Below are positions 20,450 to 52,427 of a stretch of DNA of 64,000 bases, one piece after another. This DNA is from a bacterium (GTDB taxonomy: Bacteria > Patescibacteriota > Patescibacteriia > UBA10025), in contig JAKAGM010000001.1 of the NCBI GenBank assembly GCA_021815445.1, positions 531,710 to 595,709 of the forward strand. The letters run 5' to 3'. Made by a program: the position numbers and the translations under genes. A model generated the notes under the pieces. That model searched no databases. It was not told where the DNA came from and saw only the letters and a program-made list of their open reading frames with translations. Position 1 is the first letter of the stretch, and each line of letters begins with the position of its first letter.

Positions 20450-20527
20450 TGGTAGTCCCATCGGGATTTGAACCCGAGTTTCTTGGATGAGAACCAAGTG
20501 TCCTAGACCGGGCTAGACGATGGGACC
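20450..20527 (-). tRNA. tRNA-Glu (anticodon CTC)
   Basis: Cloverleaf folded by hand; close to E. coli tRNA-Glu D-arm (TCGTCTAG...GGACAC); TTCAAAT T-loop; CCA encoded. Confidence 0.8.
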
Positions 20528-29091: not shown

Positions 29092-30495
29092 TCACTTCTT
29101 GACTATCTTGATGTGGAGGTCTTTGAGCTGGCCCGGATCTACATCGCTTGGTGATCCTGTCATTATTTCCCTGTTGTCAGCTGTCTTTGGAAACGCGACG
29201 ACTTCACGCACACTCGGTTCGTTCAGCAAAATGGCTAATAGCCTTTCGATGCCGCAAGCGATCCCCCCGTGAGGAGGTACGCCGTACTCGAACGCTTCCA
29301 TCATGTGTCCGAACTGAATCTTGGCCTCCTCCTTTGTCACGCCGACCAGCTCCAGCACTTTTTCAAGCACTTTCGGGTCAGTCGAACGGATACTGCCGCC
29401 GGCAATTTCGTAGCCGTTGAGCGCTATGTCATGCTGCCAGGATCGAACTTTACCGGGGTCCGTGTCGAGCAAACCGATGTCTTCCGTGTGCGGCGCTGTA
29501 AAAATGTGATGATGCGCAACGTACTTGCCGTCTTTGCGCTCTGCTTCAAAGAATGGCCAGTCAACGATGAAGGCGAACGCGAGCTCATTCGAGTCGTTCT
29601 TGTTTTTACGTAAATCAGGCTTGTCAGTCTTATTCTTCGCCATTGCCTCTGCGTATGATATTCGCGGCCAGGGTGAAAAAGTGATTTTTTTCTCTGGGAA
29701 ATACTTTTTTATCATCTCGGTATAGAGCCGCTCTACCAGGTCAAGGATTTCTCCCTGTTCGACGAATGACATTTCTATATCAAGCTGGAAAAATTGGTCA
29801 GGTGCCCGGTCAGAACGCGCGTCCTCGTCCCTGAAACACGGCGCTATCTGGAAATACTTGTCGAACCCCGCGACCATGAGCATCTGCTTGTATTGCTGGG
29901 GCGACTGCGGCAGGGCATAGAACTTGCCCGGATACTCCCTGGACGGTACGAGGTAATCTCTCGCCCCTTCGGGGGTGGACTTCGCCAAAATAGGCGTCTC
30001 TATCTCGATAAACCCTTCACTATGCAAGAAGTCGCGCATGAACTTCAAAAGCTTTGACCGGACGATGATAGTCCGCTGGTTTCTCGCACGGCGTAAATCT
30101 AAGTATCGGTATTTAAACCGCAGTTCCTCGGAAGCGTCCATTTTTTCGGTTTCCACAATCTCAAACGGTGGAGTTTTTGATTCGGCAAGGATTTTTAACC
30201 CCTCAGCTTGCACTTCAACACTGCCGGTGGCCATCTCTTTGTTAATCAGCTTCTCGGGACGTTTACTTACTGTGCCGGTAATTTCTACCACGAATTCTGA
30301 CCTAAGTTTTTTTGCAGCCTCAAGCACTTCTGCCTTGTCTGGAGTGAACACAACTTGAACAATCCCCGACACATCGCGCAGGTCGACAAACACCATCTTG
30401 CCCATCCTGCGGGCCATGTGCACCCAGCCGTTGAGACGGACTTGCTTGTCAGTATTATTAACTGTTTCTGTTACTAGCAGTCTTTTCATGCGCAT
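29092..30495 (-). CDS. aspS: Aspartate--tRNA ligase (class IIb, compact form without GAD insertion)
   Basis: OB-fold N-domain, class II motifs incl. FRDEDARSDRAPDQFFQLDIEMSF and GGSIR. Confidence 0.8.
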   Translation of the reverse strand: MRMKRLLVTETVNNTDKQVRLNGWVHMARRMGKMVFVDLRDVSGIVQVVFTPDKAEVLEAAKKLRSEFVVEITGTVSKRPEKLINKEMATGSVEVQAEGLKILAESKTPPFEIVETEKMDASEELRFKYRYLDLRRARNQRTIIVRSKLLKFMRDFLHSEGFIEIETPILAKSTPEGARDYLVPSREYPGKFYALPQSPQQYKQMLMVAGFDKYFQIAPCFRDEDARSDRAPDQFFQLDIEMSFVEQGEILDLVERLYTEMIKKYFPEKKITFSPWPRISYAEAMAKNKTDKPDLRKNKNDSNELAFAFIVDWPFFEAERKDGKYVAHHHIFTAPHTEDIGLLDTDPGKVRSWQHDIALNGYEIAGGSIRSTDPKVLEKVLELVGVTKEEAKIQFGHMMEAFEYGVPPHGGIACGIERLLAILLNEPSVREVVAFPKTADNREIMTGSPSDVDPGQLKDLHIKIVKK

Positions 30496-33835: not shown

Positions 33836-35128
33836 TTAAGGTTTCAGCCTGTTTAAAAGACGCGGGAAAGGTATTGCCTCGCGGACATGGTCGAGCTTAC
33901 ACATCCATGTTACGACGCGCTCCAGACCCACCCCGAAGCCGGAATGCGGGAAAGATCCGTATCGGCGGAGGTCGAGGTACCATTCAAATGGCTCTACAGG
34001 GAGTTTCTGCTCGACAAAACGCTTTTTGAGAAGCGCGAGATCATCGATGCGCTGCGAGCCCCCGATGATTTCCCCGTACCCTTCCGGCGCGAGAAGGTCC
34101 GCGCAGAGGACGCGTTCGGGGTTGTCGGGAAGCGGCTTCATATAAAACGCTTTGATAGCCGTCGGAAAGTTCGTAATGAACACCGGCTTCTTGTGATGGT
34201 TCGAAAGCAGCGTCTCATCGTCAGCGCCGAGGTCATCGCCCGACTTAATGTCGGATCCGTTTTTCATGAGCCACTCGACGGCTTCGTCGTACGTTAAACG
34301 CGGAAACGGAGCTGTGATGTTTTTTAACGGTTCGAGAGGGCGCCCGAGAATAGTAAGTTCTTTTTCACAGTTTCTGACGACGTCCCCGGCAATCCGGCAT
34401 ATAAGCTCCTCCTGGAGTTTGAGGCTTTCTTCATGCTCCATGAACGCAGCTTCGGCGTCGAGCATCCAAAACTCCATCAGGTGACGCCGGGTTTTTGACT
34501 TTTCGGCGCGAAACGTCGGCCCAAAATCATAGACTTTGCCAAGAGACGCGGCGAGCGCCTCGAGGTAGAGCTGTCCCGACTGGGCGAGATACGCTGTCTG
34601 TCCGAAATAGTCTGTCGAGAACAGCGTCGTGGTCCCCTCGCACGACGTCGGAGTCAGAATTGGCGTGTCGGTAAGGATAAATCCTTTTTCACGGAAAAAA
34701 GACCTCATCGACCAGATAACCTGGTCGCGGATGATTAAAATGGCGGCCTGCTTCGATGACCGGATCCAGAGATGCCTGTTATCGAGGAGAAATTCTATCC
34801 CGTGCTCCTTTTTGGCTATCGGATACTCCTCAGCCCGGTGAATAATTGTGATATCGTTGACATGAAGCTCGAAACCGCTGGGCGACCGTTTTTCGGATAC
34901 CACCTTGCCGGTGAGTTTCACGGAACTTTCCTGGGTGACTTTTGAACACCGCTCGAAGCCGCCTTCCGCCATTTCCGCTTTATTTGCGACAGCTTGGATA
35001 GTGCCCGTACCGTCGCGCAGCTGCAAAAAGAAGATCTGTCCTGACGAGCGCAAATTATACACCCAGCCCTTCAGGCAAACCTCCTTATTGAGATGTGTCC
35101 CGATCTGACGAATATCGATGCAATCCAT
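33836..35128 (-). CDS. asnS: Asparagine--tRNA ligase
   Basis: Class IIb with FRAEKSKTRRHLMEFWMLDAEAAF motif 2 region. Confidence 0.8.
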   Translation of the reverse strand: MDCIDIRQIGTHLNKEVCLKGWVYNLRSSGQIFFLQLRDGTGTIQAVANKAEMAEGGFERCSKVTQESSVKLTGKVVSEKRSPSGFELHVNDITIIHRAEEYPIAKKEHGIEFLLDNRHLWIRSSKQAAILIIRDQVIWSMRSFFREKGFILTDTPILTPTSCEGTTTLFSTDYFGQTAYLAQSGQLYLEALAASLGKVYDFGPTFRAEKSKTRRHLMEFWMLDAEAAFMEHEESLKLQEELICRIAGDVVRNCEKELTILGRPLEPLKNITAPFPRLTYDEAVEWLMKNGSDIKSGDDLGADDETLLSNHHKKPVFITNFPTAIKAFYMKPLPDNPERVLCADLLAPEGYGEIIGGSQRIDDLALLKKRFVEQKLPVEPFEWYLDLRRYGSFPHSGFGVGLERVVTWMCKLDHVREAIPFPRLLNRLKP

Positions 35129-38718: not shown

Positions 38719-38790
38719 CTTTACAATTTGCGTCCAGGAGGGCTCGAACCTCCAACCTTAGGCTTAAAAGGCCTCTGCTCTACCATTGAG
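38719..38790 (-). tRNA. tRNA-Lys (anticodon TTT)
   Basis: Cloverleaf folded by hand: acceptor GCGTCCA/TGGACGC, D-arm GCTCAATGGTAGAGC, anticodon loop CTTTTAA, T-arm GGAGGTTCGAGCCCTCC; CCA not encoded; 10 bp of extra flank complementarity. Confidence 0.8.
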
Positions 38791-38886
38791 CTATGGACGC
38801 AAATTGTAAACGATCAGGTAAAAAATATCTTAACCTTAGGTCCCGGCCCCGCTTCCTGCGGGGCCGCGGATCCTCGATCCCGTCGC

Positions 38887-38924
38887 GGGGTCGGGACTTA
38901 AAAGGCCTCTGCTCTACCATTGAG
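38887..38924 (-). pseudogene. Truncated tRNA-Lys(TTT) 5' half, identical to positions 1-38 of the intact gene, then a 56 nt GC-rich insert and a 9 nt continuation
   Basis: Exact 38 nt match up to anticodon loop; downstream T-arm and acceptor 3' strand absent. Confidence 0.55.
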
Positions 38925-38991
38925 CTATGGACGCACAGTAATAGTTTGAATTGTAATTTACCGGCGAACAAACGCAAGGCGATGCGGGCGG

Positions 38992-39018
38992 GTAAGAGGC
39001 CTCTGCTCTACCATTGAG
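38992..39018 (-). pseudogene. Second truncated tRNA-like 5' fragment (acceptor GGGTCGT, identical D-arm, loop would give anticodon CTT)
   Basis: 25 nt identical to tRNA-Lys D-arm region; no T-arm or 3' acceptor strand found. Confidence 0.4.
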
Positions 39019-39083
39019 CTAACGACCCGGAAAATAATTGTACTAACCTGTCAATGAAGTTGCTTACGGACAAACACATCGCG

Positions 39084-49672: not shown

Positions 49673-50068
49673 TTAATATATCTCACAGATAATTTCGCCT
49701 CCGACCTTCTTTTTCTTTGCTTCACGGTGGGTCATAATCCCCTGAGAGGTGGAAAGAATAGCGACTCCAAGCTCAGGAGTCCACATGGGAAGGTCCTGGT
49801 AGCCGTTATACACCCTCCTGCCCGGCTTGCTGATGCGTTTCACTCCGCGAATTACTGGTTCGCCTTTCACATATTTTAATCCGAGGGCCAGAACGTTGCC
49901 GTGTTCCGTATTTTTTTCTTCAATACCAGAAAGATACCCTTCTTTTTCCAATATTTTTGCGATGGCAAGCTTCAGCTTCGAGAATGGGATAATGGCCTGG
50001 TCTTTGCGCACCAAACTCGCATTGCGGATTCGCGTAATCATGTCTGCTATGGGGTCTGTAGATTGCAT
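49673..50068 (-). CDS. rpsH: 30S ribosomal protein S8
   Basis: DPIADMITRIRNA motif. Confidence 0.9.
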   Translation of the reverse strand: MQSTDPIADMITRIRNASLVRKDQAIIPFSKLKLAIAKILEKEGYLSGIEEKNTEHGNVLALGLKYVKGEPVIRGVKRISKPGRRVYNGYQDLPMWTPELGVAILSTSQGIMTHREAKKKKVGGEIICEIY

Positions 50069-50082
50069 AAAGGTGTATTTAT

Positions 50083-50268
50083 CTACCAGCTTGATTTGGT
50101 AATGCCGGGAATTTGTCCGTTATTCGCCAGTTCTCGGAAACAGATCCTGCATAAGCGGAACTTACGTATATATCCCCGCCGTCTGCCGCATCTGAAACAA
50201 CGCCGGACTGTGCGGGTCGAGTACTTAGGTTTTTTCTTAGCTCTGGCTATTTGGGAGGTTTTTGGCAT
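50083..50268 (-). CDS. rpsZ: 30S ribosomal protein S14 type Z (zinc-binding)
   Basis: 61 aa with CxxC ... CxxC. Confidence 0.9.
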
Positions 50269-50286
50269 AAAAGAAAATAGAAAATG

Positions 50287-50835
50287 CTACTCCGGCCGGC
50301 TAAAAGGAATGCCGAGAAGTTGCAAAAGATACATGCCTTCATCGCGAGTCTTGGCTGTCGTACTGATGGTTACCTGGAGACCATGCGTGAAGTCTACATT
50401 GTCCTGCCCTATCTCGGGAAAAATCCCCTGCTCGCGGATCCCGACTGATAAATTCCCGCGCATGTCGACGCTTTGAGGAGAAATACCGCGAAAATCCCTG
50501 ATACGAGGCATAACGATGCGAACCAGCTTCTCGACAAAATCGTACATGCGTTTCCCCCGCATCGTCGCCATCATCCCCACAATCATGCCTTCCCTGATTT
50601 TAAAGCTTGATATCGATTTTTTTGCCGCGCGATTCACAATATGCTGTCCTGTAATAAGTTCGAGGTTATGCCTGATTTTTTCAAGGATTTTATCATCTTT
50701 GCCAATCTTCCCCACGCCCGCATTGACAACGACTTTTTCAAGCCGGGGCACCTCCAGCGCATTGGCGTATCCGAAACGCTTCTTCATTTCGGGTATAACA
50801 ACTTTTTTATAATGGTCCACTAAAGCTGGTTTCAT
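50287..50835 (-). CDS. rplE: 50S ribosomal protein L5
   Basis: L5 family pattern. Confidence 0.9.
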   Translation of the reverse strand: MKPALVDHYKKVVIPEMKKRFGYANALEVPRLEKVVVNAGVGKIGKDDKILEKIRHNLELITGQHIVNRAAKKSISSFKIREGMIVGMMATMRGKRMYDFVEKLVRIVMPRIRDFRGISPQSVDMRGNLSVGIREQGIFPEIGQDNVDFTHGLQVTISTTAKTRDEGMYLLQLLGIPFSRPE

Positions 50836-51524: not shown

Positions 51525-51782
51525 TTAAGCTTGCGGGTAGATTACCATCCAGCGTTTGCGGCGCGAAAACGGCCGACAGGCGTGAAAAGAAACTGCGTCT
51601 CCGACATGAAACCTGTTTTGCGGATCATGAACAAAATATTTTTTTGTCCGGGTATACCGTTTCCTATAACGAGGATGGAGGACTGTCCGCTTGACGATGA
51701 CGGCGATTGTCTTATCCATCGCATCAGAAGTAACTATTCCCTGGAGTGTGCGGATATTCTTTTTTTCTTGCGTAAGGGTCAT
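51525..51782 (-). CDS. rpsQ: 30S ribosomal protein S17
   Basis: S17 OB-fold pattern. Confidence 0.9.
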
Positions 51783-51787
51783 AATGG

Positions 51788-52006
51788 TTATTGCTTCGCA
51801 GATTCACGTTTTTTTAATAATGTTTTTTTGGTATTGAGAATAGTATGTATCTGCGCGATTTCCTTCCGCAGCGCGCGAATTTCTCGCACATCCTTAAGCT
51901 GTTTCGCCACAACCCTGAAACGGGCATCGCGGAGTTTCTCGCGTAATTGCGCAAGTAATTTCGTTAACTCTGTTGAATGTTTTACCCTGAGTTCTTTGAG
52001 TTCCAT
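51788..52006 (-). CDS. rpmC: 50S ribosomal protein L29
   Basis: 72 aa helical, L29 pattern. Confidence 0.85.
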   Translation of the reverse strand: MELKELRVKHSTELTKLLAQLREKLRDARFRVVAKQLKDVREIRALRKEIAQIHTILNTKKTLLKKRESAKQ

Positions 52007-52013
52007 AGTGGAC

Positions 52014-52427
52014 CTAGGAAGTCTTTTTTTCTACAAATGTCGTGATGACGGGAAGTTTGTGCGCGGCCAATTTCATCGCTTCAGCGGCTATCTCACGGGA
52101 TACGCCGTCCATCTCAAAGAGGATAGTTCCCGCCTTGACGACTGCGACATAATGATCGACGGGGCCTTTACCGCCGCCCATGCGAATTTCAGAGCCTTTG
52201 ATCGTAATAGGTTTGTCGGGAAAAATTCTGATCCAGATTTTCCCTCCCCGTTGGATATACCTCGTCATCGCCCTTCGTGCGGCTTCGATTTGGCGTGACG
52301 TAACCCAGCTCTTTTCCATCGCACGCAATCCGAAACTTCCGAAACTTAGATGAATTTTTTGAGTAGCTTTCCCCCGGATACTCCCCCGCTGCCATTTCCT
52401 GTATTTAACTTTTTTCGGCATTAACAT
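52014..52427 (-). CDS. rplP: 50S ribosomal protein L16
   Basis: [15 protein letters not shown] start. Confidence 0.9.

Follow-up and report, generated by a model that had tools for sequence, protein, structure and literature searches.

The stretch of DNA analysed here, referred to throughout as the window (64,000 nucleotides (nt) of contig JAKAGM010000001.1, assembly GCA_021815445.1), belongs to the core chromosome of a Patescibacteria (candidate phyla radiation, CPR) genome of about 0.88 Mb. Between 38714 and 39028 it carries, all on the minus strand, an intact tRNA-Lys gene and two 5′ partial copies of tRNA-Lys genes, one of which is interrupted by a GC-rich insert. An intact tRNA-Lys(TTT) accompanied by two 5′ partial copies had been described in the original prediction, which was made from the sequence alone, and the arrangement is real: a 25-mer common to all three copies occurs three times in the window, against 0.00 expected by chance. 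The fragments had been said to follow the tRNA; as the gene and its fragments are on the minus strand, the two fragments are upstream of the intact gene and precede it in the direction of transcription. The intact tRNA-Lys(UUU) gene (38800-38729, minus strand) is 72 nt long without an encoded CCA, scored 73.2 bits with the Rfam tRNA model (RF00005) and was called by ARAGORN at 38801..38728. It is the sole functional tRNA of the locus.

The fragment nearer to the intact gene, orphan copy 2, consists of nucleotides 1-38 of tRNA-Lys(UUU) (38934-38897, minus strand). Including the T at position -1 (38935) it was identical to the intact gene at 39 of 39 positions, which agrees with the identity first reported, although the coordinates then given (38887-38924) were shifted by roughly 10 nt. 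Copy 2 is interrupted within its anticodon stem by the insert, which is exactly 56 nt long as predicted (38896-38841) and occurs once in the window. The insert encodes the perfect 9-bp hairpin CGGCCCCGC-AGGAA-GCGGGGCCG (38866-38844), which had also been recognised, and a second, small hairpin, TCCCG-N9-CGGGA (38896-38878). After the insert the tRNA sequence resumes for 9 nt, again as described, with CCTAAGGTT (38840-38832), the rest of the 3′ strand of the anticodon stem and the variable loop; copy 2 then stops just short of the T stem, and no T arm follows. An A/T-rich spacer of 15 nt, AAGATATTTTTTACC (38831-38817), separates copy 2 from the flank of the intact gene and could not be aligned with the matching spacers of two related loci, L100 and L085 (L-numbers are labels of related loci compared with the window). 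The end of copy 2 is 31 nt from the tRNA, and the intact gene lies 96 nt downstream of nucleotides 1-38 of copy 2.

The more distant fragment, orphan copy 3 (39028-38992, minus strand), comprises the first 37 nt of a gene of the tRNA-Lys(CUU) type and reads GGGTCGT TA GCTC AATGGTA GAGC A GAGGC CTCTTAC. The acceptor strand GGGTCGT and the loop CTCTTAC bear out the different acceptor stem and the CTT-reading loop already proposed for it. An 11-nt insert, CCGCCCGCATC (38991-38981), and the GCCTT that completes the 3′ strand of the anticodon stem (38980-38976) had been missed and were placed by the Rfam alignment. A degenerate 40-nt tail extends from there down to 38936 and holds a TACAAT -10-like box 17 nt before copy 2; the separation between copies 3 and 2 is 55 nt. 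Such boxes were noted by eye only, and scans for promoters and terminators returned no consensus promoter site directly upstream of the fragments and 0 terminator-like sites. An independent Logan assembly breaks inside copy 3, as would be expected for a real repeat. Four independent Logan contigs from related organisms (L002, L083, L134 and L135) also end within the 5′ half of the DnaQ-adjacent tRNA-Lys gene, as would fit assemblies being broken by tRNA 5′ halves that are repeated or shared.

Copies 2 and 3 fail as functional tRNA genes. With the Rfam tRNA model at permissive thresholds they scored 19.5 and 21.1 bits respectively, both below the gathering score of 29 bits. ARAGORN in default, intron and pseudogene modes, the latter two as proposed in the original prediction, returned nothing credible at the locus besides the intact gene. 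The 3′ half of the live tRNA is present once in the window. A search for the missing 3′ halves found no match for either fragment in the 64 kb, nor a T arm followed by ACGACCC, the strand that copy 3 would need. At an 80% score threshold ARAGORN also called a 'tRNA-Arg(gcg)' on the plus strand (38829-38897), opposite the 56-nt insert. This is almost certainly spurious and shows the insert to be cloverleaf-prone.

The locus was then compared with the same position in relatives, in which the gene order DUF192-L21-RecR-YbaB-DnaB-DnaQ-[tRNA-Lys]-pilin-P-type ATPase-AsnRS is kept. DnaB of the window shares 82% identity with that of L084 and 79% with that of L085. A plain tRNA-Lys was found at the DnaQ-adjacent locus in L084 and L083; the L084 gene is identical in sequence to that of the window and has neither fragments nor an extended stem. 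Single intact genes of this kind had been named beforehand as a result that would favour an integration scar. They support the general idea of scars at the DNA level, as do other relatives, which proved to be rearranged differently. In L085-87 a degenerate tRNA-Lys 5′ part lies between DnaQ and a tRNA-Lys(CUU) and is broken by the hairpins TCCCGAC..GTCGGGA, TCCCGAT..ATCGGGA and TCCCGATGCCGCGACGGGA, the last of these being at the exact position of the window insert and matching 17 of its first 19 nt. L135 encodes a 13-nt 5′ tRNA fragment and a hairpin upstream of the tRNA. In L136-138 the tRNA-Lys is followed by an open reading frame (ORF) for a GIY-YIG nuclease and then by a copy resembling tRNA-Lys whose anticodon, variable and T loops contain hairpins; the arrangements of L135 and L136 therefore differ despite 90% identity of their DnaB proteins. 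A 21-nt repeat of the tRNA 3′ end is present about 140 nt downstream in L139-142, and the locus has no tRNA in L088. Next to DnaQ there is thus a plain gene in L083 and L084, an occupied locus in L136 and a gene with orphans in the window, L085 and L135, and this tRNA-Lys locus is hypervariable among relatives. A GGGTCGT start like that of copy 3 follows DnaQ in L134, the relative with the most similar DnaQ.

Two further structures were observed beside tRNA-Lys genes of relatives. In L139 (3785-3955), L099 (3673-3830) and L122 (minus strand, about 140-230 nt downstream) a conserved structured element of ~120-150 nt lies 3′ of the tRNA-Lys and reads GGAyTyGAAGGGCAGrAGCGA ... CGCTGCCCAGnACC, followed by an 18-21-nt repeat of the tRNA from the T loop to the 3′ end. 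Its outer arm (GGATTTG or GGACTCG) covaries with the local tRNA T loop, and it has no Rfam match; it may be a remnant resembling an attachment (att) site or a separate RNA. In L093 (minus strand) an inverted copy of the T loop and T stem of a tRNA-Lys(CUU), CCTGGGGATCGAA, was found about 100 nt downstream of the gene, another inverted duplication beside a tRNA-Lys.

The fullest version of the leader was found in L100 and L111, which are probably from the same population and encode five D-arm hairpins and a 52-nt insert. Their context differs from that of the window, with CbiM/PDGLE upstream and an ATP-binding cassette (ABC) transporter downstream, and a comparison of L085 with L100 shows the whole leader module, sharply bounded, in two gene neighbourhoods that are unrelated to each other. 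In the window and in L100, L085 and L135 the orphans all stop at ...AGGTT, directly before the T stem, and the anticodon loop CU(U/C)UUAA is common to copy 2, L100 and L085. An alignment of the window insert with the L100 insert at the same tRNA position showed 44 of 56 nt to be identical (79%), whereas fourfold degenerate sites are saturated between the window and the L085 genome (27% identical). The insert must therefore be either under selection, for the host or for an element, or horizontally spread, and on this comparison it is evidently not an old neutral scar. The L085 version is visibly decayed, with an insert of only 19 nt and mismatched stems. Folding of the insert region and its homologues gave z scores of -2.6, -0.4 and +0.3, so that stability is not consistently above background, and across the hairpins as a whole G-U and A-C mismatches were about equally frequent in our own count. 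The insert is not a genome-wide repeat of the miniature inverted-repeat transposable element (MITE) or repetitive extragenic palindrome (REP) kind; this idea was rejected because the insert is unique in the window and TCCCGA..TYGGGA hairpins are confined to tRNA-Lys leaders among the related loci.

The recurrent partner of this architecture in relatives is a GIY-YIG gene. Self-comparison of tRNA-Lys genes and their flanks revealed L129, in which nucleotides 1-27 of the tRNA, the palindrome CCCCGAAAGCTTTCGGGG, the variable loop and a T-stem strand are followed by a GIY-YIG ORF of 83 aa, an intact tRNA-Lys and the matching 3′ part, with a 39-nt direct repeat bracketing the nuclease gene and the tRNA. 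At tRNA-Arg genes the order is a 5′ fragment with two hairpins, the GIY-YIG gene and the intact gene in L147 (tRNA-Arg CCU), with the same arrangement in L170 (tRNA-Arg GCG); in L144 two stacked tRNA-Arg UCU orphans with hairpins, which resemble the two of the window, are followed by the intact gene and then the GIY-YIG gene. An intact tRNA with a nearby hairpin-bearing partial copy was thus present at all five independent GIY-YIG loci examined (L129, L136, L144, L147 and L170). In four of the five this copy is a 5′ fragment and precedes the nuclease gene; in L136 it is nearly whole and lies downstream. The encoded proteins are ~83-112 aa long. Their family (PF01541/T5orf172, ~86 aa; P0121-P0241) comprises at least 594 clusters at 90% identity, is assigned to Parcubacteria, Paceibacterota or Kaiserbacteria where names are given, and is found mostly on contigs shorter than 5 kb from Parcubacteria-type metagenomes; the short contigs suggest multi-copy or hard-to-assemble loci. 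A GIY-YIG ORF adjoins the tRNA in L129, L144, L147, L170 and, at the orthologous locus, L136-138, and is absent from the window, which can therefore be only a derivative and not a member of this class of homing-endonuclease cassettes.

A short motif also links these loci. Leaders totalling about 1.1 kb contain YCCCGA(C/T/A) 13 times, compared with 0.0-0.7 times per kb outside them, and in 11 of the 13 cases the motif directly abuts tRNA-derived sequence. The window insert is among these and opens with the motif, as do the GIY-YIG-associated orphans. A viral source was not found: the GIY-YIG alignment had no relatives among viral contigs, the tRNA 25-mer had 0 matches in 2.9 million viral contigs, and the hairpin 16-mer CCGACCGAAGCGTCGG had 22 matches in viral contigs, about the number expected by chance on a rough estimate and none in a comparable context. 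Literature searches for GIY-YIG together with tRNA in Patescibacteria/CPR returned nothing relevant.

The intact gene of the window is enclosed by an inverted repeat that continues its acceptor stem, formed by a 5′ arm, TGATCGTTTACAATTT (38816-38801, minus strand), and a 3′ arm consisting of the discriminator A and AATTGTAAAGGATCA (38729-38714, minus strand). Flank complementarity had been put at 10 bp; it covers 16 positions, 15 of them paired and one a G-G mismatch, and with the acceptor stem gives 23-nt arms that are 96% complementary. The tRNA with both arms folds at -49.5 kcal/mol (z = -7.8). Among 82 distinct tRNA loci this extended stem was found in three, the window, L085 and L100, which are exactly those with this leader family; looser extended stems with an internal loop were seen in L093 and L129. 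The only other tRNA of the window, tRNA-Glu(CUC) (20450-20527, minus strand), has flanks that are ordinary by eye and no extended stem. The 5′ arm aligned at 16 of 18 positions with the 5′ flank of the plain L084 gene, a flank that holds a TACAAT -10-like box, and judging by this alignment it is derived from the ancestral, promoter-like upstream flank. The 3′ arm is an inverted copy of the 5′ arm and has no counterpart in L084, whose 3′ flank is unrelated. With one arm being ancestral flank and the other an inverted duplicate of it, the sequences suggest that the stem originated by DNA fold-back or template switching, with the self-complementary acceptor stem as the primer, and make stepwise compensatory evolution look less likely. 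L085 and L100 differ at four positions of their 3′ arms, each of which still pairs (through G-U); this pattern hints that the stem is at present maintained as an RNA structure. rRNAs have long leader-trailer processing stems that are cut by RNase III. The ~23-bp stem of the window likewise encloses a stable RNA between its 5′ and 3′ flanks, but it surrounds a single tRNA, directly continues the acceptor stem and is confined to the three leader-bearing loci, and its cleavage is putative.

Of the 47 ORFs of at least 110 aa across the window, none had a Pfam match to an integrase, a recombinase or GIY-YIG; the matches included chaperones, glycolysis enzymes, ribosomal proteins and elongation factors. 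A tblastn search of the window with two GIY-YIG queries was negative, and no integrase was found next to the related loci examined. The DnaQ-like exonuclease and the VirB2-like gene that had been said to flank the site were correctly identified (RNase_T/DnaQ-like and T4SS_pilin); they are conserved, syntenic chromosomal neighbours and not part of an element. Two genes for class II aminoacyl-tRNA synthetases of the Asp/Lys/Asn type are encoded on the minus strand near the tRNA-Lys (29092-30495 and 33836-35128), ~3 kb apart. Two long plus-strand ORFs (49901-50476 and 51531-52298) had no Pfam match, lie antisense to or between ribosomal-protein genes and are probably not genes.

As a GIY-YIG gene is found within the same architecture in related Parcubacteria, we read the fragments as orphaned 5′ portions of earlier tRNA-Lys copies and the window as a nuclease-less derivative of a tRNA-gene-invading element of the homing-endonuclease type, an explanation that we favour with somewhat better than even confidence. 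Successive replacement or duplication at the DNA level would have stacked orphans upstream of the current gene, the element sparing its target from death by supplying a replacement copy of the tRNA. Copy 3 would be the remnant of the original resident gene, of tRNA-Lys(CUU) type, and copy 2 a later displaced copy bearing the hairpin of the element. The complete identity of copy 2 to the live gene could reflect a recent event, or gene conversion halting where the insert begins. The -10-like boxes of the orphans are at sensible distances and that of the live gene abuts the tRNA, and on this account transcription of the live tRNA probably runs through the orphans, which form its leader. Fold-back or template-switch repair, primed from the acceptor stem, would have produced the 16-position extension by copying the ancestral 5′ flank in inverted orientation. 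The extension may lock the true 5′ end of the tRNA to its 3′ end, so that the identical upstream copy could not compete, and could also act as a double-strand processing stem.

The known analogue is SegB of T4/T6 phages, a free-standing GIY-YIG homing endonuclease inside a tRNA gene cluster, which recognises a T-arm motif (the T stem-loop) of tRNA genes and drives the inheritance and tandem amplification of tRNA-plus-segB units, creating partial repeats (PMC2330249, PMC13096335). The loci of the relatives are similar in that the GIY-YIG gene is directly beside tRNA genes. They differ in that the putative nucleases are bare catalytic domains encoded in Patescibacteria chromosomes with no viral homologue found, and in that the 5′ part of the target tRNA stays behind with characteristic hairpins. 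The window differs further in having lost, or never had, the nuclease gene.

Several observations weigh against the nuclease-less derivative that we favour. The window is linked to GIY-YIG by shared architecture and a short hairpin motif and itself has no such gene, and the nuclease loci examined are a small sample (n=5). The role of the nuclease in mobility is putative, as are cleavage, the target site and presence or absence of the element within a species, and in proteins of ~83-112 aa no DNA-binding domain is obvious beside the bare catalytic one. The breakpoint is not uniform, since the tRNA-Arg orphans stop after the D arm and the tRNA-Lys orphans before the T arm. The window insert shares no alignable homology with the tRNA-Arg hairpins, and the extended stem is absent from L144, L147 and L170, which still carry GIY-YIG. 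Conservation of the insert far beyond neutral would fit a host-selected RNA function equally well, as would the preservation of wobble pairing at all four differences between the L085 and L100 stems.

The last two points bear on a different account, in which the host has selected the orphan, the hairpin segment and the 23-bp stem as a 5′ leader, derived from a tRNA, of the tRNA-Lys precursor. Such a leader might help the precursor to fold or to be processed, or might bind a protein as a decoy by displaying the tRNA-Lys anticodon loop, and would be kept for its use to the cell whatever its origin. It would explain why the insert is so much better conserved (79% identity to that of L100) than neutral sites (27%), why the extended stem is complementary in both lineages though the sequences are unrelated, and why base pairing survives, via G-U, at all four positions where the paralogous 3′ arms of L085 and L100 differ. 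The leader is moreover always upstream and on the strand of the tRNA, the CU(U/C)UUAA loop is kept in copy 2, L100 and L085, and the genomes are streamlined (about 0.88 Mb). However, the closest relative by DnaB, L084, copes with a plain gene for an identical tRNA, and the syntenic L085 version has decayed in both its insert and its stems. The insert region is not predicted to be equally stable in its homologues (z = -2.6, -0.4 and +0.3), G-U and A-C mismatches are about equal across the hairpins, there is no Rfam family, and the origin of the 3′ arm as an inverted copy of old flank suggests a DNA event. We regard a host-selected leader as a rather unlikely account of the locus as a whole; as to what the insert and the stem do now, it is a serious rival, and it is compatible with an element origin. 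Plain tandem duplication of the promoter and the 5′ two-thirds of the gene, by slippage or unequal exchange, followed by decay and unrelated small insertions, would require no mobile element. In its favour, L084 has a single flank, to which the sequences preceding copy 2 and the intact gene are both similar, and recombination can create and remove a 39-nt direct repeat. This leaves unexplained the recurrence of the insert, at an identical position of the tRNA, in a genome of saturated divergence, the YCCCGA junction motif common to tRNA-Lys and tRNA-Arg loci and the association with GIY-YIG at five of five loci, and we consider it improbable.

Scars of att sites left by serial integration or excision at tRNA-Lys had been the leading suggestion of the original prediction. 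Its general part is supported, namely that repeated events at a tRNA-Lys hot spot scarred the DNA, with plain genes in L083 and L084 and differing rearrangements elsewhere; the integrase mechanism is not supported. In its classical form this explanation supposes tyrosine-integrase islands in tRNA-Lys that were later deleted to miniature remnants, like cis-mobilisable elements. Islands leave a direct-orientation tRNA fragment beside a regenerated gene and can occur in tandem arrays, and upstream 5′ fragments are possible, being known for 159 of 3919 islands in Islander (PMC4383910). The window resembles such islands in its regenerated tRNA beside displaced end fragments, both of them 5′ parts on the same strand and upstream, which is the expected side, and in the possibility of tandem stacking; the 18-21-nt tRNA 3′-end repeat about 140 nt downstream in L139, L099 and L122 is a classical att-like pattern. 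The window differs in having no integrase, in the 64 kb or beside any related locus examined, and no island DNA, the fragments being spaced by 31 and 55 nt, compared with at least 2 kb, and bracketing nothing. In addition, 5′ fragments are the rare case (about 4%), the tRNA 25-mer is without a match in 2.9 million viral contigs, and the conserved hairpin insert interrupts the fragment internally and does not lie beyond its end. With the GIY-YIG gene as the recurrent partner in relatives, an integrase origin seems to us to have little likelihood. Split or permuted tRNA halves, the more speculative suggestion made at the outset, or an intron-containing gene, would have the pieces joined at the RNA level. 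As in archaeal split and intron-containing tRNAs (Nanoarchaeum-type halves and bulge-helix-bulge introns; PMC3218864), the 5′ half ends at the anticodon arm and is followed by GC-rich sequence; both fragments break in or next to that arm, near the canonical archaeal intron site, and the ends of the insert can pair (TCCCG...CGGGA). The host of the window is bacterial, though, as its DnaB, RecR, bL21 and RuvX genes attest, neither fragment has a T arm or a 3′ acceptor strand in the window, ARAGORN in intron mode was negative, and no bulge-helix-bulge motif was detected, although no dedicated search for one was made. Copy 2 would only duplicate a tRNA for which an intact gene lies just downstream, and homologous copies in relatives are degenerate as tRNAs. 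Archaeal-type splitting was rejected on these grounds. Group I introns do insert in bacterial tRNA anticodon loops, sometimes with GIY-YIG endonucleases (PMC3984707), and the insert likewise lies in the anticodon arm of a bacterial tRNA gene. A group I ribozyme core takes at least about 200 nt, far more than the 56 nt of the insert, and with Rfam at E ≤ 10 no intron matched, tRNA being the only family found in the window region and in 12 related loci. As the interrupted copy 2 has no T arm, splicing could not rescue it. Joining of the pieces at the RNA level, in any of these forms, is in our judgement extremely improbable.

The nuclease-less derivative could belong to something wider. We put forward, tentatively and with less than even confidence, a widespread Parcubacteria element family (at least 594 clusters, encoding a GIY-YIG protein of ~86 aa) that is apparently undescribed and would home by target duplication instead of splicing, the displaced 5′ portion being left upstream, marked by YCCCGA hairpins, next to a regenerated, intact tRNA gene. 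The window would then be a domesticated derivative in which the insert and the 23-bp stem are kept by selection.

The feature in the window is itself a scar, and the decoding capacity of the cell is unchanged by it. The 23-bp stem around a bacterial tRNA is an unusual precursor structure. Beyond this genome, the locus points to a recurrent and seemingly unreported route by which selfish nuclease genes colonise the tRNA genes of Patescibacteria. If true, this would extend homing-endonuclease biology from phage tRNA clusters to bacterial chromosomes, would explain assembly breaks at tRNA genes in these genomes and would define a class of pseudo-tRNA fragments for annotation pipelines and those hunting split tRNAs to expect.

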